A stretch of 64,000 bases of DNA from an uncultured Gammaproteobacteria bacterium (GTDB lineage Bacteria > Patescibacteriota > Microgenomatia > UBA12405). The stretch is from the NCBI GenBank assembly GCA_964463925.1, contig CAYXDV010000004.1, positions 13,080-77,079 of the forward strand, in the 5' to 3' direction. The notes beneath the pieces are model-generated. The model saw nothing but the letters and a program-made list of their open reading frames with translations, ran no database searches and was not told where the DNA came from. The translations under genes were made by a program, and so were the position numbers. This document shows positions 18,553-43,795 of this stretch, one piece after another (position 1 is the stretch's first letter; the number at the start of each line of letters is the position of its first letter).

Positions 18553-18553
18553 T

Positions 18554-25507: not shown

Positions 25508-25523
25508 TAAACTATATTAGACC

Positions 25524-27385: not shown

Positions 27386-28145
27386 TGTAATTTTGCTCAC
27401 AGGAAATGAAGAACAGATTATTTCAAATGCTGTTAATTCTGTTTCCAAATGGTGCGACGAATTAATCTTAGTTTGTGCCAATTCAAAGGACAAATCTGAA
27501 GACATTGTAAGGACTGCTTACCCTAAAGTAAGAGTGGTAAAAATTGACGATGACTATGGGAAAAATTTTTCAAAATGGCGTAATGCTGGTTTAAAACTAG
27601 CAAAGTGTTCATGGGTTTTATATTTAGATGCAGATGAAGTTGTCAGCCAAGAACTAAAAGAAGAGATTAGTAAAATTATAAAAGTTGACGGCAATTCTCA
27701 CTATGCAATTCCAAGAGCTAACCATTTCTTAGGAAAAAGGGTGTTTTACGGAGACTCATTTCCTGACTATCAAAAAAGATTATTTCAAAAAAATAAAATC
27801 ACAAAGTGGCAAGGAAATTTGCATGAATCGCCGGTAGTAATTGGTAAGTTAGGTTATTTGTCAAATCCAATAAATCATTTTACCCACCGCAACCTGTCAG
27901 ACATGTTTAAGAAAACAAATATTTGGACCGATCTTCAGGCAGAAAATTTATATCAATCCAAACACCCGCTAATTCGAAGTTGGCGACTTTTTAGGATGTT
28001 TTTTACCAAATTCTTTCAAAGATATCTGCAGCAATCCATGTACAAAGACGGAACAGTTGGTTTAATTTCAAGCATTTTTGAAAGTTACGATACAATAATT
28101 ATTTATTCCAAGTTGTGGGAAAAACAAAATGCGAATAATAATTAG
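27372..28145 (+). CDS. GT2 glycosyltransferase (WaaE/KdtX-like subfamily)
   Basis: MSLSVILLTGNEEQII...DELILVCANSKDKSEDIV...WVLYLDADEVVSQEL; start placed at the internal ATG to limit overlap. Confidence 0.7.
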   Translation, partial: GMSLSVILLTGNEEQIISNAVNSVSKWCDELILVCANSKDKSEDIVRTAYPKVRVVKIDDDYGKNFSKWRNAGLKLAKCSWVLYLDADEVVSQELKEEISKIIKVDGNSHYAIPRANHFLGKRVFYGDSFPDYQKRLFQKNKITKWQGNLHESPVVIGKLGYLSNPINHFTHRNLSDMFKKTNIWTDLQAENLYQSKHPLIRSWRLFRMFFTKFFQRYLQQSMYKDGTVGLISSIFESYDTIIIYSKLWEKQNANNN

Positions 28146-29175
28146 TAGTCCCTACCTAGATAGCCTTGGTGGTGGAGAACGCTATATATTAACCATTGCG
28201 GAAATTCTTAGCAAAAAACATGCTGTTAGTTTGCTTTGGGACGGTAACAAAAATATTCTAGTTGAGGCTAAAAGACGTTTTAATCTAAATTTAGAGCAGG
28301 TAACTTTAATTCATAAATCACTGGCAAAAACTAATCTATTCCAAAGATATTTCTTGCTAAAAAACTACGACATTTCAATCGTTCTAACCGATGGAAGCAT
28401 ACCTTTCTTATTTGCTAAAAAAAATTTTCTCCATATTCAAGTACCCTTTAATAAAATTCAACACCACAATTTCTTGGCCAAACTAAAATTCAAATTTATT
28501 GACGGCGTTATTTGTAATTCAAAATTTACAAATACTTGGGTAAAGGAGACTTACCCTGCAAATAATTATTTCATACTATATCCACCAGTAGATACCTTAA
28601 ATATTACTTCAGCTACAAAGGAAAATATTGTATTTTCAGTTGCCAGGTTTGCCAGTCATTTAAACAGCAAACGTCAGGACATATTATTAGAAGCCTTCAA
28701 GAAATTTTATAAAAAAAATCCAGATTATCAGCTGGTTCTCGCTGGCTCGAGTAATCAGGAAAATAGCTATTTGTCACACTTGATAAAAAAGTCTTCTGGC
28801 CTGCCGGTAAAGTTTTTAGTCAATCCATCAAACGAAGAACTACTTTCATATTATAAAAAAGCTAAATATTTTTGGCATGCTGCTGGTTATGGTGTGGATC
28901 AACAGCTGAACCCAGAACAAACGGAACATTTTGGCATAGTTCTAGTTGAGGCTATGGCCGCAAAATGCCTTGTTTGTGCAGTTAATCGAGGTGGCGCAAC
29001 CGAAATAATCCAGTCTGGAAAAAACGGTTTTCTCTGGGAAAAAATTGATGAGCTTGCTAATTGTCAACAATATTTAAAACCAAAAATTATAGCTCAAGCA
29101 AAAGTTGACTCTGCAAAATTTTCAAAACAAAAATTCCAACAGTCGCTATTAAAAATTTTAAATATATCTCAATGA
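28129..29175 (+). CDS. GT4 (glycosyltransferase group 1) enzyme
   Basis: C-terminal EHFGIVLVEAMAAKCLVCAVNRGGATEII (E-x7-E GT4 motif). Confidence 0.8.
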   Translation: MRIIISSPYLDSLGGGERYILTIAEILSKKHAVSLLWDGNKNILVEAKRRFNLNLEQVTLIHKSLAKTNLFQRYFLLKNYDISIVLTDGSIPFLFAKKNFLHIQVPFNKIQHHNFLAKLKFKFIDGVICNSKFTNTWVKETYPANNYFILYPPVDTLNITSATKENIVFSVARFASHLNSKRQDILLEAFKKFYKKNPDYQLVLAGSSNQENSYLSHLIKKSSGLPVKFLVNPSNEELLSYYKKAKYFWHAAGYGVDQQLNPEQTEHFGIVLVEAMAAKCLVCAVNRGGATEIIQSGKNGFLWEKIDELANCQQYLKPKIIAQAKVDSAKFSKQKFQQSLLKILNISQ

Positions 29176-30044
29176 AAATATCAGTAGTTATTACTAATTG
29201 GAACGGACTTAATTTAATTACCAAGAGCCTACCAGAAGTGCTTAAATACAGCCAAGAAGCCTATGAATTTATTTTCGTAGATGATGGGTCTACAGACAAT
29301 AGTCTGTCATTTGTAAACAATCTGGCCAAAAAGAACAAAAAGATAAAAATTATTGCCCAAAAACAAAACAAAGGTTTTATTCATTCTTCAAACGAGGGCG
29401 TTTCTAAATCTTCTGGCGAATTGGTTGTACTGCTAAACAACGATATCTATCCAAAAAGAAATTATATAAAGGAATCGTTGTCTCATTTTCAAGATAAAAC
29501 AGTGTATGGAGTTGGTTTTGCTGAAATTGGTCAGGAAAATTGGCCACGCCTTTTTTGGAGTGAAGGCTATCTCCAATACGAACCTGTTTTTTCAACCAGC
29601 ACCCACATTACCGGTTGGTTATCAGGGGGTAGTAGTATAGTCCGCAAGGAATACTTTCAAAAGTTGAAAGGTTTTGATCCGGTGTATGAGCCATTTTATT
29701 CCGAAGATTTAGATTTAGGATACCGCGCCTGGAAGTCGGGTTATAAGCTTTTGTGGGAACCATTATGTCGTGTTCTACACCAGCATGAATCAACAACGTC
29801 TAAGTTCAACAAACACTTTACTGATTATGTCAAAGAAAGAAACAGACTGCTTGTGGTTTGGCGAAATATAACAGATGTAGACCTGCGAGCAAGCAACACC
29901 AGAGGTATTATTTTTAGGACACTTTTGGGTCCAAACTACATTAAAATCATCCGTTCAGCCAAAAGACAATTGGGTTCCTATCCACCAGCCACAGTCTTTC
30001 CATTACTAACTGATCGTCAAATATTTTCACTTTTTTCAAAGTAA
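29172..30044 (+). CDS. GT2 glycosyltransferase
   Basis: ISVVITNWNGLNLITKSLP...FVDDGSTDNS...LLNNDIYP. Confidence 0.8.
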   Translation: MKISVVITNWNGLNLITKSLPEVLKYSQEAYEFIFVDDGSTDNSLSFVNNLAKKNKKIKIIAQKQNKGFIHSSNEGVSKSSGELVVLLNNDIYPKRNYIKESLSHFQDKTVYGVGFAEIGQENWPRLFWSEGYLQYEPVFSTSTHITGWLSGGSSIVRKEYFQKLKGFDPVYEPFYSEDLDLGYRAWKSGYKLLWEPLCRVLHQHESTTSKFNKHFTDYVKERNRLLVVWRNITDVDLRASNTRGIIFRTLLGPNYIKIIRSAKRQLGSYPPATVFPLLTDRQIFSLFSK

Positions 30045-30838
30045 TGACACCTGAATTTTCAATAATAATTGTTAACTACAACACAAAACAACTATTATTA
30101 AACTGCATCCACAGTTTACAAATAAAACTTAAAAATGGGCCGAAATACGAAATTATTGTTTTAGATAACGCCTCCACCGATGGTTCACCAATTGCCCTTA
30201 AAAAAATAAGCCTAAAAAATTTAAAAGTGATTCAATCGAAAATTAATCTTGGTTTTGCCAAAGGAAACAATATAGCTGCAAAACAAGCCAAGGGAAAGTA
30301 CCTTTTTTTTCTTAATTCCGATACTCTTATAAAAGAGATAAATCTATCCAAAATTGCACAGCTATTCGAGAAAGACCAGCATATTGGACTAATAGCACCT
30401 AAACTACTTAATATAGATAACACAATTCAACCTTCTTGCTATCATAGTCAAAACCTTAAAAATGCCATAAAAGAATACTGGCTTGGTCAGAAAAACGCCT
30501 TTTCCAAATACACTCCTAACAAAAAAACAGCTTCAGAAGTAGATTTGGTAGTTGCTGCTGCAATCTTTCTGCCGACAAAACTCTTTTGGCAAATTGGCGG
30601 TTGGGATGAACGCTATTTTATGTATTTTGAAGATCTAGAATTATGTAAAAAATTAAAAAGTGCCAACAAAAAAATTTTATATGTACCTGATTTGCAGGTT
30701 GTTCATCTACATGGTTCAAGTCCACACTCGCAGAATCCTCCATCAAACACTTTGGTCAAAAGCAGCAAGATTTTTCATGGGCATGTAAAATACTATTTAC
30801 TCTATCTAATCTTATGGACAGGACAAAAAAAATCCTAA
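30044..30838 (+). CDS. GT2 glycosyltransferase
   Basis: FSIIIVNYNTKQLLLNCIHSL...VLDNASTDGS...FLNSDTL. Confidence 0.8.
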   Translation: MTPEFSIIIVNYNTKQLLLNCIHSLQIKLKNGPKYEIIVLDNASTDGSPIALKKISLKNLKVIQSKINLGFAKGNNIAAKQAKGKYLFFLNSDTLIKEINLSKIAQLFEKDQHIGLIAPKLLNIDNTIQPSCYHSQNLKNAIKEYWLGQKNAFSKYTPNKKTASEVDLVVAAAIFLPTKLFWQIGGWDERYFMYFEDLELCKKLKSANKKILYVPDLQVVHLHGSSPHSQNPPSNTLVKSSKIFHGHVKYYLLYLILWTGQKKS

Positions 30839-31995
30839 TTTTTGCCTCACTTTTAAGATTTTTACTTTTACCTTTCTTATACCATCCAGACTTAAAGTCT
30901 CAATATTTCCAAGCACAATTCTTATCCAAAGGATATTTAAATATATACACTTTCCTTTCCCAAAACTCAGCAAATTTACCATACAGAGACACATTTAATT
31001 ACACCCCGCCCATCTATCTGATCCAAGGTGGCTGGTATTATATTGTTTCCCACTTAGCTCCAGGGAATATCTCTCAGTGGATAAATGACTGGAGTCAGAA
31101 TCAATACGGTTACTCGAATCTTCCATGGTTTCTTTTGCTCCTAAAATTACCATATTTTCTAGCTGATATGCTCTTGGGTTATTTTATTCTAAAAAGGTTT
31201 GGCAGAAAAGCAGGTATCTTATGGTTATTTAACCCATTTCCAATTTACGCCATTTATTTTCACTCAAATTTCGATATTCTTCCAGCTGCTTTAGCTTTTA
31301 TTGGACTCACGCTAATTGAAAAGAAAAAAAATCCTATATTTTCTGCTCTTTGTATCTCAACAGCAGTTTCCCTAAAAATTTTTCCTATTTTTATCTTACC
31401 GATTGTCTGGATACAATCTGCAAATGTTCAAAAAAAATTCTATTTTTATACTACGGTTTTTATATTTTTATATTTGATCATATTTCAACTGTATTTCCCG
31501 GGCTGGTGGCAATCACTAAGCTCGTCCGGATTACTTCAAAAAGCATACGAAACAAAGGTATTGGTTTTTCCTATTTTCCCTTTGGTGTATTTATCTTCTT
31601 TATTTTTCTTGCTCTTTAATAAAATAAAACCTTGGTTTTTTATTTTATTATTATCTACTAGTTTTTGGATCTTTGTACCCATGCATGGCCAATGGCTTGT
31701 TTGGTTTTTGCCACTCTTAATTACCCAAGAAGAAATCTACAATTCAAAATTGAACATGGTTGTCATCAGCCTAGTTTTATCCGTGGCGGTTTTTAAAATT
31801 TTTTCTTTAAACGATTTATTTATGACTTTTGGCCATTTTGTGCCAATAAATCAACTTTTTCAATTTCAAACTATTCCGTATGATTATCTTTCTAACCACT
31901 TGCCATTAAAAATGGTGAATGGTTTTTCATCACTAATCCAAGCTTTTTCTTTTATTCTACTTATTGGTAAATATGTTCACAAAAATATTACTTAG
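30814..31995 (+). CDS. Polytopic membrane protein, putative GT-C (DUF2029/GT87-like) mannosyltransferase-type enzyme
   Basis: 393 aa, about 10 TM helices; N-terminal loop motif YRDTFNYTPP; family uncertain. Confidence 0.4.
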   Translation: MDRTKKILIFASLLRFLLLPFLYHPDLKSQYFQAQFLSKGYLNIYTFLSQNSANLPYRDTFNYTPPIYLIQGGWYYIVSHLAPGNISQWINDWSQNQYGYSNLPWFLLLLKLPYFLADMLLGYFILKRFGRKAGILWLFNPFPIYAIYFHSNFDILPAALAFIGLTLIEKKKNPIFSALCISTAVSLKIFPIFILPIVWIQSANVQKKFYFYTTVFIFLYLIIFQLYFPGWWQSLSSSGLLQKAYETKVLVFPIFPLVYLSSLFFLLFNKIKPWFFILLLSTSFWIFVPMHGQWLVWFLPLLITQEEIYNSKLNMVVISLVLSVAVFKIFSLNDLFMTFGHFVPINQLFQFQTIPYDYLSNHLPLKMVNGFSSLIQAFSFILLIGKYVHKNIT

Positions 31996-32533
31996 CTTAA
32001 CTACTTTACTGTGTCTTTGGGTCATTACACCCACATTGTTTTTAAGAAAAATTCCAGTATTAATCCAAGAAGGAACTGGTTATACACAAGAAATAGGTCC
32101 CGGAAAGAGTAAAGATATTGATTTATTTGTTAAAGCAGAAAGTTTGAGTCAATTACAACTTTTGCTAAAAAACAAAGGACTTCAAAACAACGACCAATTT
32201 ATTGTTACCATATCTAGTGGTAAAAATGCCAAGGCTTTTCTATTAAATGGTTCTAATGTTGGCGATCCTTCGTGGTTAAAGATTAAGCTAAGTAATTTTG
32301 CAGTTACAGACAATCTAATTAATATTAAATTGTCTGTGGCCAGTACTAGCAAATACTCACTTTTTTGGCATGGACAAGCAGAGAAACATTTAAGCCTTCA
32401 ACTATATACAACGCCAGATTATAAACAAAGATTTATCTCCTCTTTAAGAAATCTGGCAGCTTGGCTACAAACGACAGATAAAAGTTATCTAATACTATAT
32501 ATATCCGTTTTACTGTTTTTATGTATAATTTAA
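31964..32533 (+). CDS. Hypothetical protein with TM helices at both termini
   Basis: ORF only; N-terminal TM, about 130-aa soluble domain, C-terminal TM. Confidence 0.35.
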   Translation: MVNMFTKILLSLTTLLCLWVITPTLFLRKIPVLIQEGTGYTQEIGPGKSKDIDLFVKAESLSQLQLLLKNKGLQNNDQFIVTISSGKNAKAFLLNGSNVGDPSWLKIKLSNFAVTDNLINIKLSVASTSKYSLFWHGQAEKHLSLQLYTTPDYKQRFISSLRNLAAWLQTTDKSYLILYISVLLFLCII

Positions 32534-32543
32534 GGCTATAATT

Positions 32544-34193
32544 TTGGTTATGTACAGATTTTTTCCAATATTTTTGTTTTTTTTGCTTTTATCATGTCTT
32601 GCGGGAAGCCAATTTTTCAGGGCTGGTTTTTTTGACACTCAGGATAACATGCATCCCCTGCGACTATTGCAGTATGAAGAATGTCAAAAGGACGGTCAGT
32701 TCCCTTGTCGTTATGTCCAGCAATTAGGATTGAACTGTGGATATCCTTTGTTTAATTTTTATCCGCCAGCAAGTTATGAATTTGCCCTAGGGATAAAAAC
32801 ACTTTTTTTAGGACACATAGGTTATCTCTCAACTATCAAAGCATATTATTTCCTTACGATCTTATTAGGGTCCGCTGGAATGTTTTTTCTATCAAAGTAT
32901 TTATCAAAGAACCAGTACACCGCACTCTTGGCTACTACCTTATATACTTTGGCTCCTTACAGATCAGTTAATATTTATGTTCGAGGTGCTTTTGCAGAAC
33001 ATTTTTTACTTAGCATAGTTCCCTGGTTAGTATTTTTCTTACTCTCCTGGTTAAAAAGTTTTATTCGCCGCCTGCTTTATATTTTAATTTTATGCTTATC
33101 AATCCTTTCTCACAGTCTATTTCCTATTCTTTTTGGACCAATTTTTATTACCATCCTAATTCATAAACTAATTGCTGACAAACAAAGCTGGTCAACAAAA
33201 GGAAAATTATTGCTAGATAGTTTTTTCAGTCTTTTACTATCCTCCTTTTTCTTACTACCAGCGCTATTAGAAAGAAAAAATACAACCAATTATTTGATGT
33301 CTACTGGATACTTTAACTTCATAAACCATTTTGTAACTTTTAAACAACTTTTTTTAAATACCTTTTGGGGTTATGGTCCCTCAACCTGGGGAAACCTAGA
33401 CGGAATGTCTTTTCAGATTGGCCCCATCCATCTATTGGCGATCTTATTTTGTCTTATTAGTTTTTTTATAAACAAATCAGTTAAGAAAAATTCACTCTTT
33501 GCAATCACGGGACTTTCTTTTTTTATTTTTTTAACCCACAATCGTTCAACATTTTTGTGGCAAATTGTGCCTTTTATTTCGTATGTTCAGTTTCCCTGGC
33601 GTTTTCTGGGTCCAATAATCTTTACAGTTGCAATCCTAGTTTCAATTAACATAAAGGATAAGCATGTTATTTTTTTTCTAATTCTATCTTGTGTAATATT
33701 TTATTCTAAACTCTTTTATTCAAATAACTGGAATCTATTCGAAACTGACCAGCTCAAGTTTTCTGGCAGCTATCTTTATGACCAGCAAGCAGCAGGATTG
33801 GGGGATTATTGGCCATCATATGGTAAAACCATGCCAAACGAAGCTTGCCAGAACATGCCAACTTTTACATCAGGAAAAGGCAACATTGAATTTTTTTCCA
33901 AAAAAACAAACCGTGTATCTGGAAAAGTTCTTTCCAATGGAAATTCAACTATCACCCTACCTCTAGTTTTCTTTCCAGGTTGGCAAATATCCCAAAATGG
34001 ATCAATTTTTACCAGTCCTAATTATGAACCAAAATACGGATTAATATCACTAAATTTACAACCAGGAGAGAATAACTTCACACTTACTTATGTTGGTACC
34101 AATGTTCAGCAGTTATCAAATCTCCTATCTCTTATCAGCCTCGGTTTAATGCTTTATTATTTGATAATCAGTCATGACCCAAAAAATAACTAA
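32544..34193 (+). CDS. Large polytopic membrane protein, putative GT-C/YfhO-like glycosyltransferase; paralog of 20804-22477
   Basis: 549 aa; conserved ...DNMHPLRLL...DGQFPCRYV...CGYPLFNFYPP block shared with 20804-22477. Confidence 0.5.
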   Translation: MVMYRFFPIFLFFLLLSCLAGSQFFRAGFFDTQDNMHPLRLLQYEECQKDGQFPCRYVQQLGLNCGYPLFNFYPPASYEFALGIKTLFLGHIGYLSTIKAYYFLTILLGSAGMFFLSKYLSKNQYTALLATTLYTLAPYRSVNIYVRGAFAEHFLLSIVPWLVFFLLSWLKSFIRRLLYILILCLSILSHSLFPILFGPIFITILIHKLIADKQSWSTKGKLLLDSFFSLLLSSFFLLPALLERKNTTNYLMSTGYFNFINHFVTFKQLFLNTFWGYGPSTWGNLDGMSFQIGPIHLLAILFCLISFFINKSVKKNSLFAITGLSFFIFLTHNRSTFLWQIVPFISYVQFPWRFLGPIIFTVAILVSINIKDKHVIFFLILSCVIFYSKLFYSNNWNLFETDQLKFSGSYLYDQQAAGLGDYWPSYGKTMPNEACQNMPTFTSGKGNIEFFSKKTNRVSGKVLSNGNSTITLPLVFFPGWQISQNGSIFTSPNYEPKYGLISLNLQPGENNFTLTYVGTNVQQLSNLLSLISLGLMLYYLIISHDPKNN

Positions 34194-35748
34194 ACTTCTA
34201 ATATTACTTCTAGTAGTCACACGAATTCTATTTCTAAACAGCTTTCCAATTTCTCTAAATTGGGATGAAGTTAGTCATGGTTATAATGCCTACAGCATTT
34301 TGCACACATCTTATGATCAGTGGGGCAAGAAACTGCCAATGTTCAATTTTCGTGCTTATGGTGATTACCCAACCACTTTAAACATGTACGCCTCCATTCC
34401 TTTTATTTCGATATTTGGACTAAATTCCTTTTCAATACGAATATTTTCAGCAATTATGGGAATTTTAATTGTTCTTTCAGTTTACAAACTATCTGACTTT
34501 CTCAAACTAAGACACAGAAATCTATTCTTCCTAATTTTGTTATTTTCCAACACACTCTTTTTTACCAGTCGTGGTGTTTTTCAGTCAACAGTTGCCTCGG
34601 GTCTTTATTTCCTGGGACTTTATCTGATTTTGTCAAAAAGTAAATATAATTGGTTTGGACTTTTAAGTCTAACATTTAGCCAATATGCTTATCACAATGC
34701 TCGTATTGTTACACCATTTGTTCTGATCTTCTTGTTTATTAAAGGAAAAGAGTATATTCAAAAAATTCCAATATTTGTAATCTTAATTTCCATAATTTTC
34801 AGTATCTTTTCCATAAACAATTTACTAACAAATAAAGATGCATCTGCTCGTAACAAATGGGTTTCAATTGTCGGCATTGAGGCAACAAATCAAATAATTG
34901 TTAATCGTCAGAATTTTTCAGGACCTCCGCAGCTGAATCGAATCCTAAACAACAAGCTGACATATGCAGTAAAAGCAATTTCGAAAAATTACCTATGGTA
35001 CATATCTCCGTATCCTTTATTCTTTCAAGGAACGGGGAACTATCAGTTTAATTTGCCGCACCTTGGACTTTGGCCAACCGTGGCTTTACCATTTTTCTAT
35101 TTTGGACTCTTTTTTGTTCTCAAAAATAGGAAAAAGTACCAATTCTTTCTATTTTTTATAATTATAGGGTTTTTACCGGCAGCCATTACCCAAGGTGATT
35201 TTCCTGTTCTCAGATTAAGTTTAGTCTTACCACTATATGCTGTCTTGATTTCAATGGGAGTCGAACAGGTTTCTAGGCGCATCTTTTGGATCGTTCCAAT
35301 ATTTGTTTTTGTATATTCAATACAATTTTTGCAGTTTGCAAGAGATTATTTCACAAATTACCCCTTTGCCTATGCCGATACTTGGCAATACGGCTACAAA
35401 CAAATCGTCGATATTTCTAAGGAAAATTATAGCCGATATTCAAATATCGTAGTTACAAAAAAATACGGTGAACCCCATGAGTTCTTTTTATTCTATTGGC
35501 CATGGAATCCAATACAATATCTGCTAGATCCTAAGAAAAAAACTGATATGCATTCAGATTGGTATTGGGTTGATTCTTTTGACAAATTTCACTTTGTAAA
35601 TGATTGGGATTTGCAAAAATACGTCCAAAATACACCAGGTAAAAAATTAGTTTTTTCCAGTCAAAACAATCTCTCTGGATCACTAATGGGTATAATAAGA
35701 TATCCAAACCAAGATCCAGTGTTCTATGTATACAACTATGAAAATTAA
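34174..35748 (+). CDS. PMT_2/ArnT-like GT-C glycosyltransferase, tandem paralog 1 of 3
   Basis: WDEVSHGYNAYSIL...FRAYGDYP...GLNSFSIRIFSAI; more than 10 TM helices. Confidence 0.65.
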   Translation: MTQKITKLLILLLVVTRILFLNSFPISLNWDEVSHGYNAYSILHTSYDQWGKKLPMFNFRAYGDYPTTLNMYASIPFISIFGLNSFSIRIFSAIMGILIVLSVYKLSDFLKLRHRNLFFLILLFSNTLFFTSRGVFQSTVASGLYFLGLYLILSKSKYNWFGLLSLTFSQYAYHNARIVTPFVLIFLFIKGKEYIQKIPIFVILISIIFSIFSINNLLTNKDASARNKWVSIVGIEATNQIIVNRQNFSGPPQLNRILNNKLTYAVKAISKNYLWYISPYPLFFQGTGNYQFNLPHLGLWPTVALPFFYFGLFFVLKNRKKYQFFLFFIIIGFLPAAITQGDFPVLRLSLVLPLYAVLISMGVEQVSRRIFWIVPIFVFVYSIQFLQFARDYFTNYPFAYADTWQYGYKQIVDISKENYSRYSNIVVTKKYGEPHEFFLFYWPWNPIQYLLDPKKKTDMHSDWYWVDSFDKFHFVNDWDLQKYVQNTPGKKLVFSSQNNLSGSLMGIIRYPNQDPVFYVYNYEN

Positions 35749-37297
35749 ATTGCTCCTTGTGCTTCTTTTTATCCTAGGAACTTTTTTTCGCCTTTACAGA
35801 TTGAGTTCATATCCACCACTACTATGGGATGAGGCAGCTCTTGGCTACAACAGCTATTCAATTCTAAAAACTGGGCGTGATGAATTTGGTCAAGTTTTAC
35901 CTCTAATTTTTAAATCATTTGGCGACTATAAGCCTGGCTTGTATATCTACCTGACCCTTCCTTTTGTAAAGCTTTTAGGACTCTCTGTTTTATCAGTCCG
36001 TCTACCTGGCGTGATCTTTGGGCTAATATCTTGCTATCTTTTATATCTAATATTAAGAAACTTTGGGAAAAATCTGGCTATCACCACCACAGCTATAGCT
36101 CTATTTTTCCCATGGAGTATTCATTTTAGTCGCGGTGCCTGGGAAAGCAATCTTGCCACTATGCTCTTATTGCTGTCCTTTTATCTCTATTCCCAAAACA
36201 AATATGTTCTTTCTAGTTTGATCCTTGGTCTTAATCTTTACGCATATCAATCATCAAAATTTTTTTGTCTTGTATTTTTATTATTTTTTATAATTTCAAA
36301 CTTTAAATCTAAAAATACTCTTGTAAAGTTAATCATTCCTGTTTTCCTATTATCTTTGCCATTATTGTTTGGTGTATTTTCAGGAAATGATGCCAATAGG
36401 TTAAAAATATTAAGTATTCTTAGCTACCCACAAACCAGCACAGAAATAGCCAAAGTTCAGAATCTAACTAGCCCTTTCTTGCAAAAAGTTTTTTTTAATA
36501 ATCATTTTTATTTTTTGCGAGAAATATCTAGACGTTATTTAAATAACTTCTCACCACAGTTTCTTTTTTGGCAAGGTGATTGGCAAAACCCAAGACATTC
36601 AGCCCCATATACAGGGCTTCTTTTGTGGCCACTAATTTGGCTATTGCCATTAGGGCTTCTAAAAGCATTGACGTGGCCAAGACGAAAAATAAGCCTATTT
36701 TTTCTACTCTGGCTTCTAACTGCTCCGCTGCCTGCAGCACTAACACGTGATGAGATACAGGCAAACAGAACATTGGGCTTGTTCTTACCCATAAGCTACT
36801 TCTCAGCAATGGGCTACATAAATTTAAAAAATAATTTCTACAAATACTCTACGATCCTTATTTTTCTTTTTAGTCTTGGATATTATCTCGATTTGTATCA
36901 CATACACATGGTACAGAAGTCTCCAGACCAATGGCTATCAGGATACCAAACGGCAGTAGATCTTGCTCAAAACCATAATTACAATCAGATCTATTTTACT
37001 GATTTCTATGGTCAACCATACATCTACTTTTTATTCTTTAGTCAATACAATCCGCTAATCTATCAGCAGAAAAACCATTTCACAGATAATAAAGCAGGGG
37101 ATGTAGGCTCAGTATCTACTTTAGATAATATTTCATTTGGCTCATTTAATTTTAACAATTTAAAGAGCAAACCAAACTCATTGATTGTTCTCTCAAGAGA
37201 CGAACTGTTAAGACAGGGACTCAATTTTAACCAATTCAAAGCCATAGCTCCAGAAAACGGAGTATCTAATTTCTATGCATATTCTACGCAGCCATAA
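35726..37297 (+). CDS. PMT_2/ArnT-like GT-C glycosyltransferase, tandem paralog 2 of 3
   Basis: WDEAALGYNSYSILKTGRDEFG...FKSFGDYKPG...GLSVLSVRLP. Confidence 0.65.
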   Translation: MYTTMKIKLLLVLLFILGTFFRLYRLSSYPPLLWDEAALGYNSYSILKTGRDEFGQVLPLIFKSFGDYKPGLYIYLTLPFVKLLGLSVLSVRLPGVIFGLISCYLLYLILRNFGKNLAITTTAIALFFPWSIHFSRGAWESNLATMLLLLSFYLYSQNKYVLSSLILGLNLYAYQSSKFFCLVFLLFFIISNFKSKNTLVKLIIPVFLLSLPLLFGVFSGNDANRLKILSILSYPQTSTEIAKVQNLTSPFLQKVFFNNHFYFLREISRRYLNNFSPQFLFWQGDWQNPRHSAPYTGLLLWPLIWLLPLGLLKALTWPRRKISLFFLLWLLTAPLPAALTRDEIQANRTLGLFLPISYFSAMGYINLKNNFYKYSTILIFLFSLGYYLDLYHIHMVQKSPDQWLSGYQTAVDLAQNHNYNQIYFTDFYGQPYIYFLFFSQYNPLIYQQKNHFTDNKAGDVGSVSTLDNISFGSFNFNNLKSKPNSLIVLSRDELLRQGLNFNQFKAIAPENGVSNFYAYSTQP

Positions 37298-38732
37298 ATT
37301 ATTATTTTTAATCTGTTTATTTGGCTTATTTCTCAGATCTTATCATCTCGATTCTTATCCTAGTTTAAATCCCGACGAAGCATCCCTGGGATACAATGCC
37401 TATTCGTTAATAAAAACAGGTAAAGATGAACATGGAACATCATGGCCTATTCATTTCAAATCATTTGGTGATTACAAGCCCGGTGGCTATGTTTATGTTC
37501 TATTACCCTTTATTAAATTTTTTGGACTCAATACTCTGTCAGTTAGATTGCCAAATCTTATAGCTTCGGTTTTGATTCTAGCCTTAGCTTACAAAATAGT
37601 TAACTTTCTATCAAAAAACACCTCTTTGTCGTTACTTACAACTTTTTTCTTATCTATATCTCCTTGGGCTATTCATTTTAGTCGTGGTGCTTGGGAAAGT
37701 AATTTTGCCTTTTTCTTAATTTTGGCAGCAACTTATTGTTTCCTTAAAAATCATTTAATTTTTTCAGCCCTCTTCTTCTCGGCTAGTCTTTACACCTATC
37801 ATTCTGCACGATTGTTTGTGCCACTCTTAATAATATTTCTAATAACCTCAAATATTGTAAATAGAAAAAAATTTGTGTCTAAGAAACATATAATTTTTTT
37901 ACTATCTATGGCTTTCTTTTCTCTACCGGTAGTTTTCTCCTTCCTAAACACAGGGGGCACATCTCGATTTGCGGGAGTGGGATTAGGAGCTGATCAAGGG
38001 CCTATATGGCGCGCAAATGAACTTATAAATGATCATCATACAACAAAACTAGCAGTTAGACTTTTGCACAACAAGCGAGTTTTATATTTACTCTCCTGGG
38101 CAGAAAAATACACCAGCCATTTCAATCTAAATTTTCTCTTCTTGAATGGCGATCAGGTACCTCGATCCAAAGTTCCAAATATGGGAGAGTCATATCTTAT
38201 TTTTTTACCTTTTTTTCTTTTTGGACTTCTTTCTTTGCTTAATAAAGAAACCCCACCCAAATTTAGAAATCTACTCATTTTTTGGTTGCTTGCGTCTCCG
38301 CTTGCTTCGTCGCTCACTTATCAGGCTCCATCAAGTTTGCGCTCTTTACCTGAGGTTTTTGCAGTTGAAGCCATCAGTGCTTTTGGGTTGTATCATTTTA
38401 TATATCATATAAAACAAAAAGCAAAACTATTATTATCTACATCCATAGTTTTTTGTTTACTGATTGTCTATTCAGTCGGATTTTATCTTGTAAATTACTA
38501 TCTACTTTATACATCAGAATATCCACAAGCTTGGCCATGGGGAGCAAAAGAAGCAATTGCCAAAAAAGATTATGATCAAATAAATGCGGACCAACCCTAT
38601 ATTATGTATTTGTTTTATACCGCTTACGATCCCCAAAAACTGCAAAAGCAGATTCAGCTCACTCCACCGGATCAATACGGTTTTTCAACCGTTAATAAAA
38701 TTGATAACATTACTTTTAGTAGTAAAAAATGA
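37275..38732 (+). CDS. PMT_2/ArnT-like GT-C glycosyltransferase, tandem paralog 3 of 3
   Basis: PDEASLGYNAYSLIKTGKDEHG...FKSFGDYKPG...GLNTLSVRLP. Confidence 0.65.
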   Translation: MHILRSHKLLFLICLFGLFLRSYHLDSYPSLNPDEASLGYNAYSLIKTGKDEHGTSWPIHFKSFGDYKPGGYVYVLLPFIKFFGLNTLSVRLPNLIASVLILALAYKIVNFLSKNTSLSLLTTFFLSISPWAIHFSRGAWESNFAFFLILAATYCFLKNHLIFSALFFSASLYTYHSARLFVPLLIIFLITSNIVNRKKFVSKKHIIFLLSMAFFSLPVVFSFLNTGGTSRFAGVGLGADQGPIWRANELINDHHTTKLAVRLLHNKRVLYLLSWAEKYTSHFNLNFLFLNGDQVPRSKVPNMGESYLIFLPFFLFGLLSLLNKETPPKFRNLLIFWLLASPLASSLTYQAPSSLRSLPEVFAVEAISAFGLYHFIYHIKQKAKLLLSTSIVFCLLIVYSVGFYLVNYYLLYTSEYPQAWPWGAKEAIAKKDYDQINADQPYIMYLFYTAYDPQKLQKQIQLTPPDQYGFSTVNKIDNITFSSKK

Positions 38733-39520
38733 AACCCAATAAAAAAATATTACTTTCAGTAGCCATTGCTACTTTTAATGAACAAGAATTCATCGGCAGA
38801 TGTCTCGATTCTGTCAAAAATTTGGCTGACGAAATAATTATTGTTGATGGCCAATCAACCGACAGGACAGTGTCTATTGTGGATAAATATCAAAACTCTA
38901 AAATAATTTCCACTAATAACAAGCCCATGTTTCACATTAACAAACAGCTTGCCTTGGATAATTGTTCTGGAAAATGGATATTGCAATTAGATGCCGACGA
39001 AGTCGTCTCACCTAGTCTGTCAAAAGAAATAAAATCAACAATACAACAAGATCATTCATATGATGGTTATTGGTTAAAAAGAGCTAACTACTTTCTTGGC
39101 AGGTTCTTAAAAAAGGGGGGGCAGTACCCAGATCCGACATTGCGACTATACAAAAATAAACTAGCCAGCTTTCCATGTAAAACTGTTCATGAACAAGTAA
39201 AACTAGAAGGAACAAGTGGATATCTAAACGCAGACCTTTTGCACTACGCGGATTATTCCTTTTCTCGTTACATCCTCAGACAAAATCGTTATACCACCGA
39301 GATGGCAACCCAACTTTTTGATCAAAAAAAGACTCCATCTTTTTTACTTTTCACAAAATATTTCTTTGTTTTTCCCACTTTCTGGTTTTTAAAAACATAT
39401 CTAAGACATAAAGGCTTTTTAGATGGCTTCCCAGGATTTGTTTTTAGTCTTTATTCAAGTCTTCGGTATCCAGCCGCCTATGTTAAGCTTTACGAACTTT
39501 ATAACCGTGAAAAAACATAA
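38729..39520 (+). CDS. GT2 glycosyltransferase (WaaE/KdtX-like subfamily)
   Basis: LSVAIATFNEQEFIGRCLDSV...DEIIIVDGQSTDRT...WILQLDADEVVSPSL. Confidence 0.75.
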   Translation: MKPNKKILLSVAIATFNEQEFIGRCLDSVKNLADEIIIVDGQSTDRTVSIVDKYQNSKIISTNNKPMFHINKQLALDNCSGKWILQLDADEVVSPSLSKEIKSTIQQDHSYDGYWLKRANYFLGRFLKKGGQYPDPTLRLYKNKLASFPCKTVHEQVKLEGTSGYLNADLLHYADYSFSRYILRQNRYTTEMATQLFDQKKTPSFLLFTKYFFVFPTFWFLKTYLRHKGFLDGFPGFVFSLYSSLRYPAAYVKLYELYNREKT

Positions 39521-40586
39521 AGTAGTTATAAACATAGCCGCTCTGCATACTCAAAGTTCAAATAGAGGTATTGGATTCTACACAAAAAGGCTAATAGATT
39601 CTTTACAAAAAGTTGTCAAAACTAACCCAACTTACAAGGATTTTCAAATAGATGTTTTCGATGGCAACGACCAGAAAATAATAAGCGATTGCAATCTGAT
39701 CCATTATCCTTATTTCGACATATTCCAAAAAACGCTAATTATAAATGACAAGCCAACTATTGTTACAGTGCACGATTTAATTCCACTTTCATTTCCAAAT
39801 CAGTATCCAGTCGGCATTCGCGGTCGAATCAATTGGATGCTGCAAAAAAAGGAGCTTACAAAAGCATCCTATATCATTACCGATTCAATTAGTTCCCGTT
39901 TTGAAATTACCAGGCATTTAAAGTTTCCGCAGGATCGTATTTTTAGTATATATCTAGCAGCTGATGGTGACTTTAAACCAATAGAAAAGAGAAAGGCCAG
40001 ACTACTAACAAAAAATCTAGGCTTGCCAGATAAATTTGTGCTATATGTTGGTGACGTAAATTGGAACAAAAATCTAGAAAGTCTGGCCAATGTTTGCATT
40101 TCTCTCAATTATCCGCTAATAGTCGTTGGCGCGGCAGCGGCAACTGCAATAGCACCCATTCACCCCTGGACCAAAAGTTTACAAAATTTTAAGCTACTGC
40201 AAGCAAAAAATGAAAATCTAGTCAAAACATTGGGCTATCTTCCAAATGATGTTTTAAATTCTCTCTACAATTTAGCAACTTTTTACTGCCAACCATCACG
40301 GGCCGAGGGTTTTGGTTTACCACTTGTTGAAGCTATGCAAGCTGGTTGCCCTGTGGTCTACTCACAGACTAGCAGTTTACCTGAAATCACAAACTATCTA
40401 GGCCTTTTTTTTGATCCTAATTCATTACAAGAAATGAAAAAGAGTTTTAAACAAATGTGGCATGATGACTCTTTACAAAAAAGGACAAGACAAGACGGTA
40501 TGCAAAGAGCAAAAATGTTTACTTGGGAATCTACCGCAATTCAGACCCTAGAAGTCTATCGATTAGCATTATTGGAAAATGCTTAA
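39480..40586 (+). CDS. GT4 (glycosyltransferase group 1) enzyme
   Basis: EGFGLPLVEAMQAGCPVVYSQTSSLPEI; start placed at the internal ATG (or GTG 39507) to limit overlap with the upstream gene. Confidence 0.8.
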   Translation: MLSFTNFITVKKHKVVINIAALHTQSSNRGIGFYTKRLIDSLQKVVKTNPTYKDFQIDVFDGNDQKIISDCNLIHYPYFDIFQKTLIINDKPTIVTVHDLIPLSFPNQYPVGIRGRINWMLQKKELTKASYIITDSISSRFEITRHLKFPQDRIFSIYLAADGDFKPIEKRKARLLTKNLGLPDKFVLYVGDVNWNKNLESLANVCISLNYPLIVVGAAAATAIAPIHPWTKSLQNFKLLQAKNENLVKTLGYLPNDVLNSLYNLATFYCQPSRAEGFGLPLVEAMQAGCPVVYSQTSSLPEITNYLGLFFDPNSLQEMKKSFKQMWHDDSLQKRTRQDGMQRAKMFTWESTAIQTLEVYRLALLENA

Positions 40587-41319
40587 CTCTAAACATTTTT
40601 TATCTGTTGTTGTTCCAGTATATAAACAAGAAAAAACAATAAAACAAGATCTGTTAAACATCATAAAAACACTAAATCAAATACGGTATGCCTACGAGGT
40701 GATTGTAGTTGTAGATGGTACTTCTATCGATCATTCTTACAATAAAGCTAAAACTTTAAAAAATAAAAACTTAAAAGTTTTTGGATACTCCAAAAATAAA
40801 GGCAAAGGATATGCTGTTCGATTTGGCATGAGAAAAAGTCGTGGAGACTATGTTGCCTTTTTAGATTCAGGTATGGAAATAGATCCAAATGGAGTTTCTA
40901 TGCTGATTGAGCACTTAGAATGGTACAGGGCAGACATTGTTGTTGCAAGTAAACGACATCCAGCATCACAAGTTTCTTATCCACCCACTCGTCGTTTAAT
41001 AAGTTTTGGAGCTCAAATTTTTGCTAGAGTATTTTTGGGCCTAAAAGTTCGCGATACCCAAGCAGGTCTTAAGATCTTCAAAAGACAAGTACTTGAAAAG
41101 GTTTTGCCTAAACTATTGGTCAAACGCTATGCTTTTGATTTAGAAATGCTTGCAGTAGCTTCACATCTTGGATATTCCAGGATTTACGAGTCACCAATCC
41201 GTTTAAAATACAACTTCCAGGATCTCACCCATGCTTCAGATTTAATCACTATCTACAATTCTCTGATAGATGCTATGGCAGTGGTATATCGTTTAAGAAT
41301 AAAAAAATTCTATGACTAA
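40579..41319 (+). CDS. GT2 glycosyltransferase (DPM1-like)
   Basis: LSVVVPVYKQEKTIKQDL...VIVVVDGTSIDHS...FLDSGMEIDP. Confidence 0.8.
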   Translation: MLNSKHFLSVVVPVYKQEKTIKQDLLNIIKTLNQIRYAYEVIVVVDGTSIDHSYNKAKTLKNKNLKVFGYSKNKGKGYAVRFGMRKSRGDYVAFLDSGMEIDPNGVSMLIEHLEWYRADIVVASKRHPASQVSYPPTRRLISFGAQIFARVFLGLKVRDTQAGLKIFKRQVLEKVLPKLLVKRYAFDLEMLAVASHLGYSRIYESPIRLKYNFQDLTHASDLITIYNSLIDAMAVVYRLRIKKFYD

Positions 41320-42271
41320 AATTCTCTTTTTTTCGGTAATCATACCTGTGAGAAAAGAAACAACGTATTTGAAACAGAATTTAGCTATTTTAAAAAAAAT
41401 ACCCAACCTTGAAGTCATCGTGGTTACCGATAAATTAAGCCATTCTCCAAATCCTGCATTTAAAAGAAATCTAGGAGCCAAAAAGGCAAAAGGGGATATC
41501 CTAGTATTTTTAGATGACGATTCATATCCAACAAAATCATACTTCGTCAAAGCTGCTAAGATATTCTCAAACCAAGAAATTCAAGCCGCCTGTGGTCCAC
41601 AGCTGACACCGCCAGATGACAATGCAGAACAACAAGCTTCGGGACTCATTCTGGCTTCCATTTTAGGAAGTGGCGGCGCGGGAACCTATCGCAACACCGT
41701 ATCATCTGCACGTTTTTTAGATGATTATCCATCTGTAAATCTGCTTGTTAGAAAAAAAACATTTTGGAAAGTTAATGGATTTGACACTTCCCATTGGCCA
41801 GGTGAAGATACTCTCTTTTGCCGACAGTTAAACCTTGTTGCAAATACAAAATTATTTTATTCACCAGAACTAGTTGTTTATCACCATCGTCGACCCATTG
41901 GAATCTCATTCTTAAAACAACATAGTCGTTATGGACAACATCGAGGTTATTTTGCAAAAAAATATCCAGAAAATAGTGCAAAGATTGGTTATTTTATACC
42001 AACACTTTTTACATTTTATCTCGTATCTTTAATATTTTTTCACCCAAGTTTTTATTTTCTTCCTGCCCTTCTCTATATTACTTTGTTAATTGCTCAGTTC
42101 TTGAACTTTATCTACTTGAAAAACTCTGTAAAAATCAGTCTGTTGGCAATTATGTTTATTCCTCTAACACATATTGTTTATGGGTTCTTTTTTGTTTTCG
42201 GACTATTGAAATCAGATCTAAAGTTTCAGCCACACCAAACAAAGCCAAATGGAAACTATTTAGGTGGCTAA
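41312..42271 (+). CDS. GT2 glycosyltransferase with a C-terminal 4-TM domain
   Basis: FSVIIPVRKE...FLDDDSYP...; C-terminal hydrophobic block. Confidence 0.75.
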   Translation: MTKILFFSVIIPVRKETTYLKQNLAILKKIPNLEVIVVTDKLSHSPNPAFKRNLGAKKAKGDILVFLDDDSYPTKSYFVKAAKIFSNQEIQAACGPQLTPPDDNAEQQASGLILASILGSGGAGTYRNTVSSARFLDDYPSVNLLVRKKTFWKVNGFDTSHWPGEDTLFCRQLNLVANTKLFYSPELVVYHHRRPIGISFLKQHSRYGQHRGYFAKKYPENSAKIGYFIPTLFTFYLVSLIFFHPSFYFLPALLYITLLIAQFLNFIYLKNSVKISLLAIMFIPLTHIVYGFFFVFGLLKSDLKFQPHQTKPNGNYLGG

Positions 42272-42289
42272 GTTTGCTACACTTATCTA

Positions 42290-43795
42290 ATGACTAAAGG
42301 TAAAAAACTATCAATTAGTATTAGCTACCCACCTCTAGAAACCAACAAAGGTACTGCATTTTTGTCACAAAACAGACAGTTCCAATGGACAAATACAGGC
42401 AATGTAATATACCCAGTTATCCCAGCTTATGCTGCTTCTCTCTTAAAAGAAAACGGATATCATGTCTTTTGGGATGACGCCATTGCAGAAAAATTAACCA
42501 AAGACCAATGGCTTCAGCGTTTATTAGACAACAAACCAGACGTTATTGCAATTGAATCTAAAACACCTACGATCAAGGGGTATTGGCGGCTTATTGATGA
42601 AATAAGACAATATCAAACAAAATCTTGGCAGCCAACAATCATATTGTATGGAGATCATTTAACTGCCCTACCAGAAGAGTCCCTAAACAATAGTTCAGTT
42701 GATATTGTCTTAACTGGTGGAGACTATGACTTTATGTTGTTAAACCTTTGCAATCATTTATCAACCGGCTCGGATTTAGAGCCTGGCTTTTACTACAAGG
42801 ATGACAGCGGAAAAATAAAAAATACTGGACCATATGCCCTAAAACATCACAATTTAGATTCTTTACCTTTTATTGATAGAGATCTTACTCGCTGGGAGCT
42901 TTATGCTTATCACAATGGTAACTACAAATACACTCCTGCCACATATCTGATGACTGGACGTGATTGCTGGTGGGGTAAATGTACCTTTTGTTCTTGGACC
43001 ACCATCTTTCCCGGTAAAGGATATCGTTTTTTTAGCCCCAAAAGAACCCTATCTGAGGTAAAGCATCTAGTAGAAAATTATGGGATCAGAGAGATCTTTG
43101 ATGATGCTGGAACTCTTACACCAGGCGCCTGGATACACGAATTCACAGCAGGATTAATAACTTCAGGCTTGCATAAAAAAGTAAGATATGGAGCCAATAT
43201 GCGCTTTAATGCTGTTGGGGAAAAAGAATATGCAGCTATGGGCCGGGCAAATTTCCGCTTCATGCTTTATGGACTAGAATCTAGTAATCAAAAAACCCTG
43301 GATATGCTCGAAAAGGGCACAAAAACAGAAGATGCCAGAAAATCCTTGTCTTTGGCCAAAAAGTACGGAATGGAACCACATTTGACAATTATGATCGGCT
43401 ATCCTTGGGAAACCAGACAAGATGCCCTAAATACTTTAGAAGAAGCAAGGCGCTTGTTTCGCGATTGTCTTGCAGATTCCATGCAGGCCACTATCGTGAT
43501 CCCTTATCCTGGAACACCTCTCTTCAAACAATGCCAAGAAAACGGATGGCTTTTAACAACCGACTGGGATGACTATGATATGCGTCAAGCTATCATGAAA
43601 TGCCCAATGGATACTCAAGAATTGAATATCTTGGTTCAAAGCCTATTTAAAGGTGTGCTTACTCCTAACTTTTTATTTAAAAAAATTGCTTCTATTCGCA
43701 ACCCAGATGATGTAAAGCACCTAGCAAGTTATGCTTACAAATTCGTAAAAAAACTTTCAGATTTCCCAGTTGGACATGTTAATCCAAGTCGCTAA
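42290..43795 (+). CDS. B12-binding-domain radical SAM enzyme
   Basis: N-terminal Rossmann-like B12-binding region (DVIAIESKTP); radical SAM cluster cysteines GRDCWWGKCTFCSW, a non-canonical Cx4Cx2C spacing; about 500 aa, typical of class B radical SAM enzymes. Confidence 0.75.
   Translation: MTKGKKLSISISYPPLETNKGTAFLSQNRQFQWTNTGNVIYPVIPAYAASLLKENGYHVFWDDAIAEKLTKDQWLQRLLDNKPDVIAIESKTPTIKGYWRLIDEIRQYQTKSWQPTIILYGDHLTALPEESLNNSSVDIVLTGGDYDFMLLNLCNHLSTGSDLEPGFYYKDDSGKIKNTGPYALKHHNLDSLPFIDRDLTRWELYAYHNGNYKYTPATYLMTGRDCWWGKCTFCSWTTIFPGKGYRFFSPKRTLSEVKHLVENYGIREIFDDAGTLTPGAWIHEFTAGLITSGLHKKVRYGANMRFNAVGEKEYAAMGRANFRFMLYGLESSNQKTLDMLEKGTKTEDARKSLSLAKKYGMEPHLTIMIGYPWETRQDALNTLEEARRLFRDCLADSMQATIVIPYPGTPLFKQCQENGWLLTTDWDDYDMRQAIMKCPMDTQELNILVQSLFKGVLTPNFLFKKIASIRNPDDVKHLASYAYKFVKKLSDFPVGHVNPSR

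Follow-up and report, generated by a model that had tools for sequence, protein, structure and literature searches.

ArnT, the undecaprenyl-phosphate-L-Ara4N:lipid A transferase of family GT83, is a glycosyltransferase of the GT-C superfamily with 13 transmembrane (TM) helices, in which the lysine of an 'EKP' motif binds the lipid phosphate. In mycobacteria, three homologous GT-C enzymes that are 40 to 46% identical and act on different acceptors are encoded in one operon, embC-embA-embB (PMC7341804). In Streptococcus mutans, two pairs of a synthase and a GT-C enzyme, SccN/SccM and SccP/SccQ, place glucose at different positions of a wall rhamnan that is exported by an ABC transporter (PMC11754754). 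Here, we describe three consecutive genes, termed A, B, and C, in a 64-kb window of contig CAYXDV010000004.1 (the window being the whole stretch of DNA analyzed), which encode GT-C proteins of 485 to 524 amino acids (aa). The trio is ancient and conserved across Microgenomates loci, and is not a recent duplication. In our preferred reading, to which we give a probability of roughly 60%, A, B, and C would be non-redundant transferases that use polyprenyl-phosphate-linked sugars to decorate an extracytoplasmic acceptor, of ancient origin, kept adjacent, and probably translationally coupled.

By analogy, embCAB (family GT53) is the closest known counterpart of such a conserved GT-C trio: homologous GT-C genes stand side by side and are retained within a lineage, and the Emb enzymes use polyprenyl-phosphate-sugar donors outside the membrane (PMC7341804). 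The Emb proteins are, however, much longer (about 1,050 to 1,100 aa, with two carbohydrate-binding modules and 15 TM helices, compared with 485 to 524 aa and no such modules in A, B, and C), their mutual identity of 40 to 46% exceeds the 27 to 35% found within the trio, and their fold matches it only weakly (TM-score 0.32 to 0.34). The predicted logic is also that of multi-component systems that combine a GT2 enzyme of the GtrB or CsbB type, a flippase, and a GT-C enzyme, such as SccN/SccM, SccP/SccQ, and YfhO/CsbB, and the window holds an ABC-2 exporter, an LCP enzyme, several GT2 proteins resembling Dpm1 or ArnC, and many GT-C genes. In contrast to those systems, a Wzx-like protein is present in the window instead of a GtrA-type flippase, the GT2 candidates lack membrane anchors, and the trio represents a distinct GT-C subfamily in a fixed tandem, whereas each Scc GT-C enzyme is paired with its own synthase.

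Homology and age of the trio

Gene A (34174..35748, plus strand) encodes a protein of 524 aa and is the most divergent of the trio; gene B (35738..37297, plus strand) encodes 519 aa, or 523 aa if translation begins at an alternative, earlier ATG at 35726; and gene C (37275..38732, plus strand) encodes 485 aa. The open reading frame (ORF) listing, with frames of 524, 523, and 485 aa, agrees with a preliminary description of this DNA, which had reported three consecutive genes with overlapping starts. A and B overlap by 11 nucleotides (nt), or by 23 nt with the earlier ATG, and B and C by 23 nt; A also overlaps the gene upstream of it (32544..34193) by 20 nt, and C overlaps the downstream GT2 gene by 4 nt. 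The methionine at the fifth codon of the longer B frame (M5, position 35738) is invariant among orthologs, the closest of which have 519 aa, and a public protein collection contains the exact sequences of A and C and lacks the 523-aa form of B. Taken together, these comparisons make 35738, rather than 35726, the more probable translation start of B.

Aligned by blastp with composition correction, B and C are 35% identical over 488 residues (E = 3.5e-72), A and B 30% over 472 residues (E = 6e-38), and A and C 27% over 469 residues (E = 1e-25). A profile of B orthologs matches A and C in hhalign with probabilities of 99.9% and 100%, respectively. Judged by sequence, the three proteins are homologous over their full length, well beyond chance. 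They also share a motif block that the preliminary description had quoted and that is found in all three essentially letter for letter: A contains SLNWDEVSHGYNAYSIL...YGDYPTT...IPF...GLNSFSIRI, B contains PLLWDEAALGYNSYSIL...FGDYKPG...LPF...GLSVLSVRL, and C contains SLNPDEASLGYNAYSLI...FGDYKPG...LPF...GLNTLSVRL. The block common to the trio can be written WDE..GYNAYS...GDY(K)P...LPF...R, with some variation between members. The WDE lies at residues 30-32 in A and at residues 34-36 in B (523-aa numbering), where it is followed by GYNSYS and FKSFGDYKPG; C has PDE where the others have WDE, and in A, FRAYGDYP replaces FKSFGDYKP. Since homology extends over the full length and the motif block is present, the similarity is not one of mere hydrophobic composition, a concern for which the preliminary description had proposed the pairwise alignment reported here. 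The word 'triplication' used there understates the family, as the window encodes at least two further distant relatives and a second GT-C-like pair.

That description had also seen in the trio a recent duplication array. The tandem arrangement of the paralogs would fit such an origin, as would a family copy number that varies from 3 to 7 members per locus, an indication that the wider family expands and contracts. The degree of divergence, however, speaks against it: protein identity between the paralogs is just 27 to 35%, and DNA similarity is limited to a single 48-nt stretch, 85% identical between B and C, that codes for PW.IHFSRGAWESN. At this distance synonymous sites are saturated, and dN/dS values for the paralogs, which the preliminary description had suggested, would carry no meaning. 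Further evidence comes from related loci, of which 85 were fetched and 81 were non-redundant, with ORFs of at least 150 aa assigned by best match to the window proteins. Most of them bear the title Candidatus Shapirobacteria or Woesebacteria. In 66 of the 81, A, B, and C follow one another without interruption, with ortholog identities of 34 to 53%; the other 15 either meet a contig edge or carry a fourth paralog between A and B, and no sufficiently long locus lacks a member of the trio.

The three positions are also distinct in sequence. Across an alignment of 360 family members, mean identity is 45% among A proteins, 49% among B proteins, and 52% among C proteins, and 28 to 34% between positions. 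In a neighbor-joining tree (capped distances, 100 bootstraps, rooted on a distant paralog in the window at 17137), each positional set forms a clade from which the other two are excluded, with bootstrap values of 100 (A), 81 (B), and 93 (C) of 100. The separate positional clades, the conserved order, and the higher identity within positions thus indicate that the duplications predate the divergence of the sampled genomes, and a recent tandem array, be it diversifying or partly redundant, is hardly tenable. The enzyme class is a known one and the context is typical, but the age was misjudged in the preliminary description.

The family extends well beyond these loci. Homologs of B number more than 2,000, with two close ones (86 and 64% identity) followed by hundreds at 43 to 49% identity, and those with a source name come from Candidatus Shapirobacteria, Woesebacteria, or Patescibacteria, which is likewise true for A. 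They are labeled 'phospholipid carrier-dependent glycosyltransferase', 'glycosyltransferase family 39 protein', or 'ArnT-like'. In a search with a profile of A, B, and C, 4,253 cluster representatives (50% identity) reach E<=1e-30, and 13,971 reach E<=1e-3. Many related genomes hold 4 to 7 family members within about 21 kb, and uninterrupted tandem runs of up to five occur. Among loci L006 to L085, the title 'uncultured Gammaproteobacteria bacterium' is frequent, and 'Candidatus Methanoperedens' and 'Clostridia bacterium' occur in isolated cases, with the same synteny and identity range as in the Shapirobacteria loci; these titles from outside Microgenomates are probably generic or mis-binned labels.

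Co-occurrence and fixed order are strict in every locus long enough to judge, and the overlapping frames suggest coupled translation, with median overlaps across related loci of 11 and 20 nt. Both features would be expected if A, B, and C were subunits of an obligate hetero-oligomeric GT-C complex, such as EmbA-EmbB or Pmt1-Pmt2, and the solved heterodimers of these proteins (7bvc and 6p25, respectively) are among the fold matches of the B model described below. In addition, one library protein of 1060 aa resembles two family members fused together. This lone fusion might, however, be a frameshift or gene-calling artifact, a fixed operon order is equally expected of enzymes that serve a single pathway, and a fourth paralog splits A and B in at least seven loci (L007, L019, L022, L030, L038, L050, and L065). 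We therefore hold the formation of such a complex, which would be compatible with the preferred reading of three non-redundant transferases, as a tentative possibility.

In the fusion-like protein (P0286 of the representative library), residues 537-1056 match the whole A/B/C profile. The fourth family member inserted between A and B is about 30 to 34% identical to C; a possible eighth case is locus L041, the contig of which begins at the inserted gene.

Fold, topology, and family relationships

Structural models place the trio within the GT-C superfamily. The AF2 model of A, built with 32 orthologs, has a predicted local distance difference test score (pLDDT) of 90.3 and a predicted TM-score (pTM) of 0.89; that of B, built with 30 orthologs, reaches 82.2 and 0.84, respectively. 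Foldseek searches of the PDB return ArnT at the top for both, as 5ezm for A (TM-score 0.53) and as 5f15 for B (E = 1.6e-6, TM-score 0.55). ArnT of Cupriavidus metallidurans is hence the best solved match, and the best over full length, for both models, with TM-scores of 0.51 to 0.55 at 10 to 13% identity. The remaining significant matches are all GT-C proteins, namely STT3/PglB/AglB, ALG9/ALG12, Pmt4, AftA/AftB/AftD, PimE, and EmbA/B. At the level of sequence families, the Pfam PMT_2 scores of A, B, and C (17.1, 26.6, and 28.6 bits against a cut-off of 26.1) are marginal, and NCBIfam yields nothing meaningful beyond weak matches of about 20 bits to the Agl23 and LA_3751 families. These PMT_2 scores and the ArnT fold matches of A and B bear out the earlier assignment of the proteins as PMT_2/ArnT-like polytopic GT-C enzymes. 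A, B, and C belong to the GT-C superfamily, and most probably work like ArnT- or PMT-type enzymes.

The models of A and B have a common layout. TM1 leads into a first loop, which is about 65 residues long and contains short helices; then come six TM helices, a second, long loop (about 80 residues, four short helices), four further TM helices, and a C-terminal alpha/beta domain of about 120 residues, so that about 11 TM helices are predicted in total. Positively charged residues are enriched on one side: the A model has 10 lysines and arginines per 25 'in' residues and 1 per 27 'out' residues, and the B model has 4 per 18 'in' residues and 2 per 19 'out' residues. By the positive-inside rule, these counts would place the N terminus in the cytoplasm, and the first loop with its DE pair, the long loop, and the C-terminal domain are predicted to be extracytoplasmic.

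This layout resembles that of ArnT in several respects: an overall length of about 520 to 550 aa, a polytopic domain followed by an outer C-terminal soluble domain, and a pair of acidic residues in the first loop on the outer side. In the alignment, B and C also have 'KP' at the 'KPP' of ArnT, although A lacks the lysine, and an ArnC-like GT2 gene is present in the operon of the trio. The differences are nevertheless considerable. Identity is only 10 to 13%, no ArnT-specific Pfam or NCBIfam model reaches its threshold with A, B, or C, about 11 TM helices are predicted compared with the 13 reported for ArnT, and there are three conserved paralogs rather than one gene. Lipid A is moreover an unlikely acceptor, given that the window contains an LCP enzyme and no recognizable lipopolysaccharide genes. 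We considered filing the proteins as ArnT and rejected this on the grounds of the missing family-model match, the different TM helix count, and the unlikely acceptor.

The first loop also links the trio to the protein O-mannosyltransferases (PMTs; family GT39, with Pmt1/2/4 and bacterial Pmt). A profile of the N-terminal 230 residues from 17 triplets was searched against PDB sequences and produced only four matches at E<=10, to Pmt4 (0.0024), ArnT (0.036), Pmt2 (0.048), and yeast Pmt4 (0.28). The profile segment 'lnwDEaalG' aligns with 'vvFDEVHFG' and 'vvWDEAHFG' of the PMTs, and 'Kpg' with 'KPP' of ArnT. In these sequence alignments, the DE pair of the family, which follows TM1, is in register with the catalytic DE of PMTs, with weak E-values but with all matches from the same superfamily. 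The conserved DE catalytic-loop motif noted in the preliminary description is thus substantiated, being both conserved and in register with the DE of Pmt2 and Pmt4.

These matches prompt a reading of the trio as PMT-like protein O-glycosyltransferases, each of which would act on the serine or threonine residues of its own set of secreted or surface-exposed proteins (for instance pilins, S-layer proteins, or Ser/Thr-rich disordered regions). Besides the alignment of the DE pair, the WDEA of the family is the same as in yeast Pmt2, Pmt4 is the best match of the N-terminal profile, and the Pfam PMT family (PF02366), which is precomputed on many orthologs, scores above its cut-off for C (33.6 bits, cut-off 22.7). 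The GT2 gene directly downstream of C (38729..39520, plus strand; Pfam GT2), the position of which is conserved, has GmaR as its best PDB match (8e-16), and its closest solved relatives are GmaR, SunS, and TarP-type GT2 proteins, the first two of which glycosylate proteins or peptides. One study further describes streptococcal membrane-associated proteins that are glycosylated on Ser/Thr-rich disordered regions (PMC12041528). However, the PF02366 match of C covers only profile positions 3-155 of 245, and A and B have none. Only the N-terminal third of the trio matches PMTs at all, and a soluble alpha/beta domain takes the place of PMT_4TMC or MIR at the C terminus, neither of which has a Pfam match in A, B, or C at E up to 0.1. 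The fold is also closer to ArnT (TM-score 0.51 to 0.55) than to PMTs (0.27 to 0.44), and the genomic context is of the polysaccharide type, where GT2/GT4 genes number more than 15 and a Wzx-like protein and an ABC-2 exporter are also encoded. We consider it unlikely that the trio acts on proteins in this way. Filing A, B, and C as bona fide PMTs was rejected on the basis of the match being restricted to the N-terminal third and the missing PMT_4TMC domain.

Conserved sites and proposed mechanism

Across the three clades, 32 positions hold the same residue in at least 90% of members. The shared core comprises (in B numbering) D35, E36, G40-S45 (GYNAYS), D52, D67, R92, S135-R136, R225, and R348, and the D35-E36 pair in the predicted outward loop after TM1 reaches 90% conservation or more in every one of the three clades. 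A pseudo-enzyme reading, in which one paralog would be inactive, was rejected, as the DE pair and the core motifs are kept in all three clades; going by these motifs, all three would be catalytically competent, and no dead paralog is apparent. We are highly confident in the combination of a GT-C fold, an ancient orthologous trio, and a catalytic motif retained in all three members.

Counted by region at a conservation threshold of 85%, half of the 38 shared sites (19) lie in the first loop, where 5 sites are specific to A, none to B, and 1 to C. The long loop, by comparison, has only 3 shared sites, with 2 specific to A, 9 to B, and 5 to C, and the C-terminal domain has 6 shared sites, with 12 specific to A, 1 to B, and 5 to C. 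The TM blocks (three summed) account for the remaining 10 shared sites, with 2 specific to A, 1 to B, and 3 to C. Such a distribution would be expected if the first loop provided common machinery for catalysis and donor binding, and the other outward-facing parts provided acceptor recognition specific to each paralog. The diversification of specificity put forward in the preliminary description therefore fits, conditionally, with divergence that is concentrated in predicted extracytoplasmic regions, but the event would be far older than claimed.

The C-terminal domain of C in the window is about 55 aa short of the median C ortholog (540 aa), and the closest relative (locus L001, 11544-12992; 482 aa) is shortened likewise. 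There is no residual frame after the short C, as the next gene overlaps its stop codon. The outward-facing domain of C is thus trimmed in the lineage of the window organism and its closest relative.

The A clade stands apart in two ways: A lacks the lysine of the 'YKP' of B and C that aligns with the ArnT 'KPP', and its C-terminal domain carries the clade's own invariant motifs DWYWV and KYGEPHEF. One or more of the proteins, most plausibly A, could hence be an en-bloc transferase or ligase that uses a polyprenyl-pyrophosphate-linked oligosaccharide, like the oligosaccharyltransferases PglB, AglB, and STT3. In addition to the absent lysine and the aromatic character of DWYWV, the fold searches rank AglB, STT3, and PglB at positions 2-7 for A and 3-8 for B, with E-values near that of ArnT. 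Yet ArnT stays the top fold match, synthases resembling Dpm1 or ArnC are encoded adjacent to the trio, and A, B, and C have neither a WWDYG motif nor a match to Pfam STT3. Their C-terminal domain of about 120 aa is also far smaller than those of oligosaccharyltransferases. We regard this type of transfer as very unlikely. Residues ~458-478 of A, in the outward-facing domain, contain an A-clade invariant stretch, HSDWYWV.xFDKF.F.NDW, that recalls the WWDYG of oligosaccharyltransferases without being identical to it.

Returning to A, B, and C as transferases of polyprenyl-phosphate-linked sugars, we propose the following mechanism. Cytoplasmic GT2 enzymes like Dpm1, ArnC, or GtrB would load single sugars onto polyprenyl phosphate, and the lipid-linked sugars would then cross the membrane via a putative flippase. 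On the outside, each of the three enzymes would transfer a sugar with inversion to a distinct position or at a distinct step of an acceptor. This acceptor would most likely be a cell-envelope glycopolymer or glycolipid, with its backbone synthesized by the numerous GT2 and GT4 enzymes that the operon encodes, its export mediated by the Wzx-like or ABC-2 transporters, and its anchoring possibly by the LCP enzyme. The shared core of the first loop would serve catalysis and binding of the donor phosphate, and the diverged long loop and C-terminal domain would determine acceptor specificity.

Three GT2 proteins look, from their sequences, like polyprenyl-phosphate-sugar synthases. The first is the 246-aa product of 40579..41319 (plus strand), with a best PDB match to the Pyrococcus dolichyl-phosphate-mannose (Dol-P-Man) synthase 5mlz (1e-13), GtrB and ArnC as the next matches, and an alignment to NCBIfam PpgS over positions 4-220 of 226, under the cut-off. 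It is the best conserved glycosyltransferase of the module, at 47 to 69% identity in most of the listed loci, 82% in L001, and lower values in a few. The second is the ArnC-like product of 16430..17158 (plus strand) at the start of the operon, which matches ArnC best in the PDB (4e-14, residues 10-226). Both the Dol-P-Man-synthase-like and the ArnC-like gene lie in the operon of the trio. The third is a small GT2 protein (18554..19312) with matches to PgfS, ArnC, and a Dol-P-hexose transferase that are under threshold.

Several observations weigh against this reading. The link of the trio to characterized families is weak at the level of sequence, with Pfam scores around or under threshold and nothing at E<=1 in full-length PDB sequence searches with C alone or with a 30-sequence B profile, and the TM-scores of the fold matches are modest (about 0.5, in the range of 0.44 to 0.55). 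The candidate undecaprenyl-phosphate-sugar synthases (242-252 aa) do not have the C-terminal TM helices of GtrB, ArnC, and the Pyrococcus Dol-P-Man synthase, and match the corresponding NCBIfam models under the curated cut-offs. Among the scanned window proteins, there is neither a GtrA Pfam match, which would represent a GtrA-type flippase, nor a priming phosphoglycosyltransferase; no free-standing ORF of 70-149 aa exists inside 16430..48236. The donor may instead be pyrophosphate-linked, with oligosaccharyltransferase-type enzymes scoring nearly as well as ArnT in the fold search, and the acceptor may be a protein. The functional assignment as a whole draws on homology and gene context.

Microgenomates are a lineage of the Candidate Phyla Radiation, whose members have very small genomes and have lost most of their biosynthetic pathways. 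Roughly half of the 64-kb window is given to glycan assembly, and the retention of three paralogs in fixed order through divergence to about 35 to 50% identity argues that each enzyme is indispensable and has a distinct role at the cell surface. Family, structure, and literature searches returned no characterized member of the family, and full-text literature searches found no paper on these proteins in the Candidate Phyla Radiation, Patescibacteria, or Microgenomates; there appears to be no earlier description of a conserved trio inside a conserved module of ten genes. Knowing the product of the trio would reveal the composition of the Microgenomates envelope, and would contribute a compact ArnT-like GT-C subfamily, in which natural variants of specificity stand next to one another, for structure-function work.

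The last gene of the conserved module (42290..43795, plus strand) encodes a B12-binding radical SAM enzyme (Pfam Radical_SAM and B12-binding) that resembles HpnJ, with a TIGR03471 HpnJ score of 146 bits that is under the cut-off. It is syntenic with the Dol-P-Man-synthase-like GT2 gene and the gene for a membrane-anchored GT2 (41312..42271) in at least 34 Microgenomates loci. HpnJ is the ring-contraction enzyme of the hopanoid cyclitol ether. The synteny of a radical SAM enzyme with lipid-sugar GT2 genes hints at unusual chemistry on a lipid-linked sugar. An extension of our proposal, which we consider quite unlikely, is that the trio forms an obligate three-enzyme extracytoplasmic assembly line, perhaps as a physical complex, that would be a hallmark of Microgenomates and would build a lineage-specific envelope glycoconjugate together with the Dpm1-like GT2, the membrane GT2, and the HpnJ-like enzyme. 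If this were true, the product might bear an unusual radical-SAM-modified sugar and could mediate host attachment of these epibiotic ultra-small cells; no equivalent of such a system has been described.

The glycan operon and neighboring genes

The window is chromosomal, as seen from genes for SerRS, SecA, BipA, a release factor, and FtsEX, and has a GC content of about 34%; tRNA and Rfam scans of the window gave no matches. The trio lies within a glycan operon of about 32 kb (16430..48236) that consists of about 30 tightly packed or overlapping plus-strand genes. These encode more than a dozen GT2 and three GT4 glycosyltransferases, together with a Wzx-like protein (22441..23874, assigned by Pfam), a hexapeptide acyltransferase, a methyltransferase, the B12-binding radical SAM enzyme, and nine polytopic proteins. 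The gene for the LCP enzyme, at 11427, is located upstream of the operon, and the ABC-2 exporter pair (49960..51439) downstream of it.

In related loci, the commonest string of genes downstream of the trio is GT2-GT4-GT2-GT2-radical SAM, which is found in 34 loci and is identical to that of the window. Here, the GT2 gene that adjoins C is followed by a gene for a GT4 glycosyltransferase of GT-B fold (39423..40586, plus strand; Pfam Glycos_transf_1), by the candidate synthase at 40579, and by a gene for a 319-aa GT2 protein with a hydrophobic C-terminal region (41312..42271, plus strand; assigned by Pfam), all within the conserved module. On the other side of the trio, the upstream neighbor of A (32544..34193, plus strand) encodes a 549-aa polytopic protein, and a copy of this type of gene is found directly upstream of A in many related loci. 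It is 32% identical over 524 aa (E = 8e-62) to a paralog at 20804..22477, which matches the PTPS_related membrane family (PF10131) and, weakly, PMT_2.

Two distant relatives of A, B, and C are encoded elsewhere in the window. The product of 17137..18552 (plus strand) scores 36 bits with PMT_2 and matches the B profile with an hhalign probability of 97% over the N-terminal 210 aa. A second, probable relative is the 439-aa product of 58948..60267 (plus strand), with an hhalign probability of 83% to the B profile. This gene, together with the minus-strand genes at 54537-58895, forms a second envelope gene cluster. The minus-strand part encodes a polytopic protein of 487 aa for which Pfam gives no match, a protein of 551 aa that matches PMT_2 weakly (22 bits), an adjacent GT2 protein of 236 aa, and a methyltransferase.

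Between the glycan operon and the ABC-2 pair lies a minus-strand gene (48226-50019) for a 597-aa protein with a hydrophobic N terminus, which has no Pfam match, and C-terminal TPR repeats. Adjoining the ABC-2 exporter, 51449-54544 encodes a 1031-aa fusion of methyltransferase, GT4-like, and GT2 domains, a layout that we take to resemble the chain-terminating or polymerizing enzymes of ABC-dependent polysaccharide pathways.

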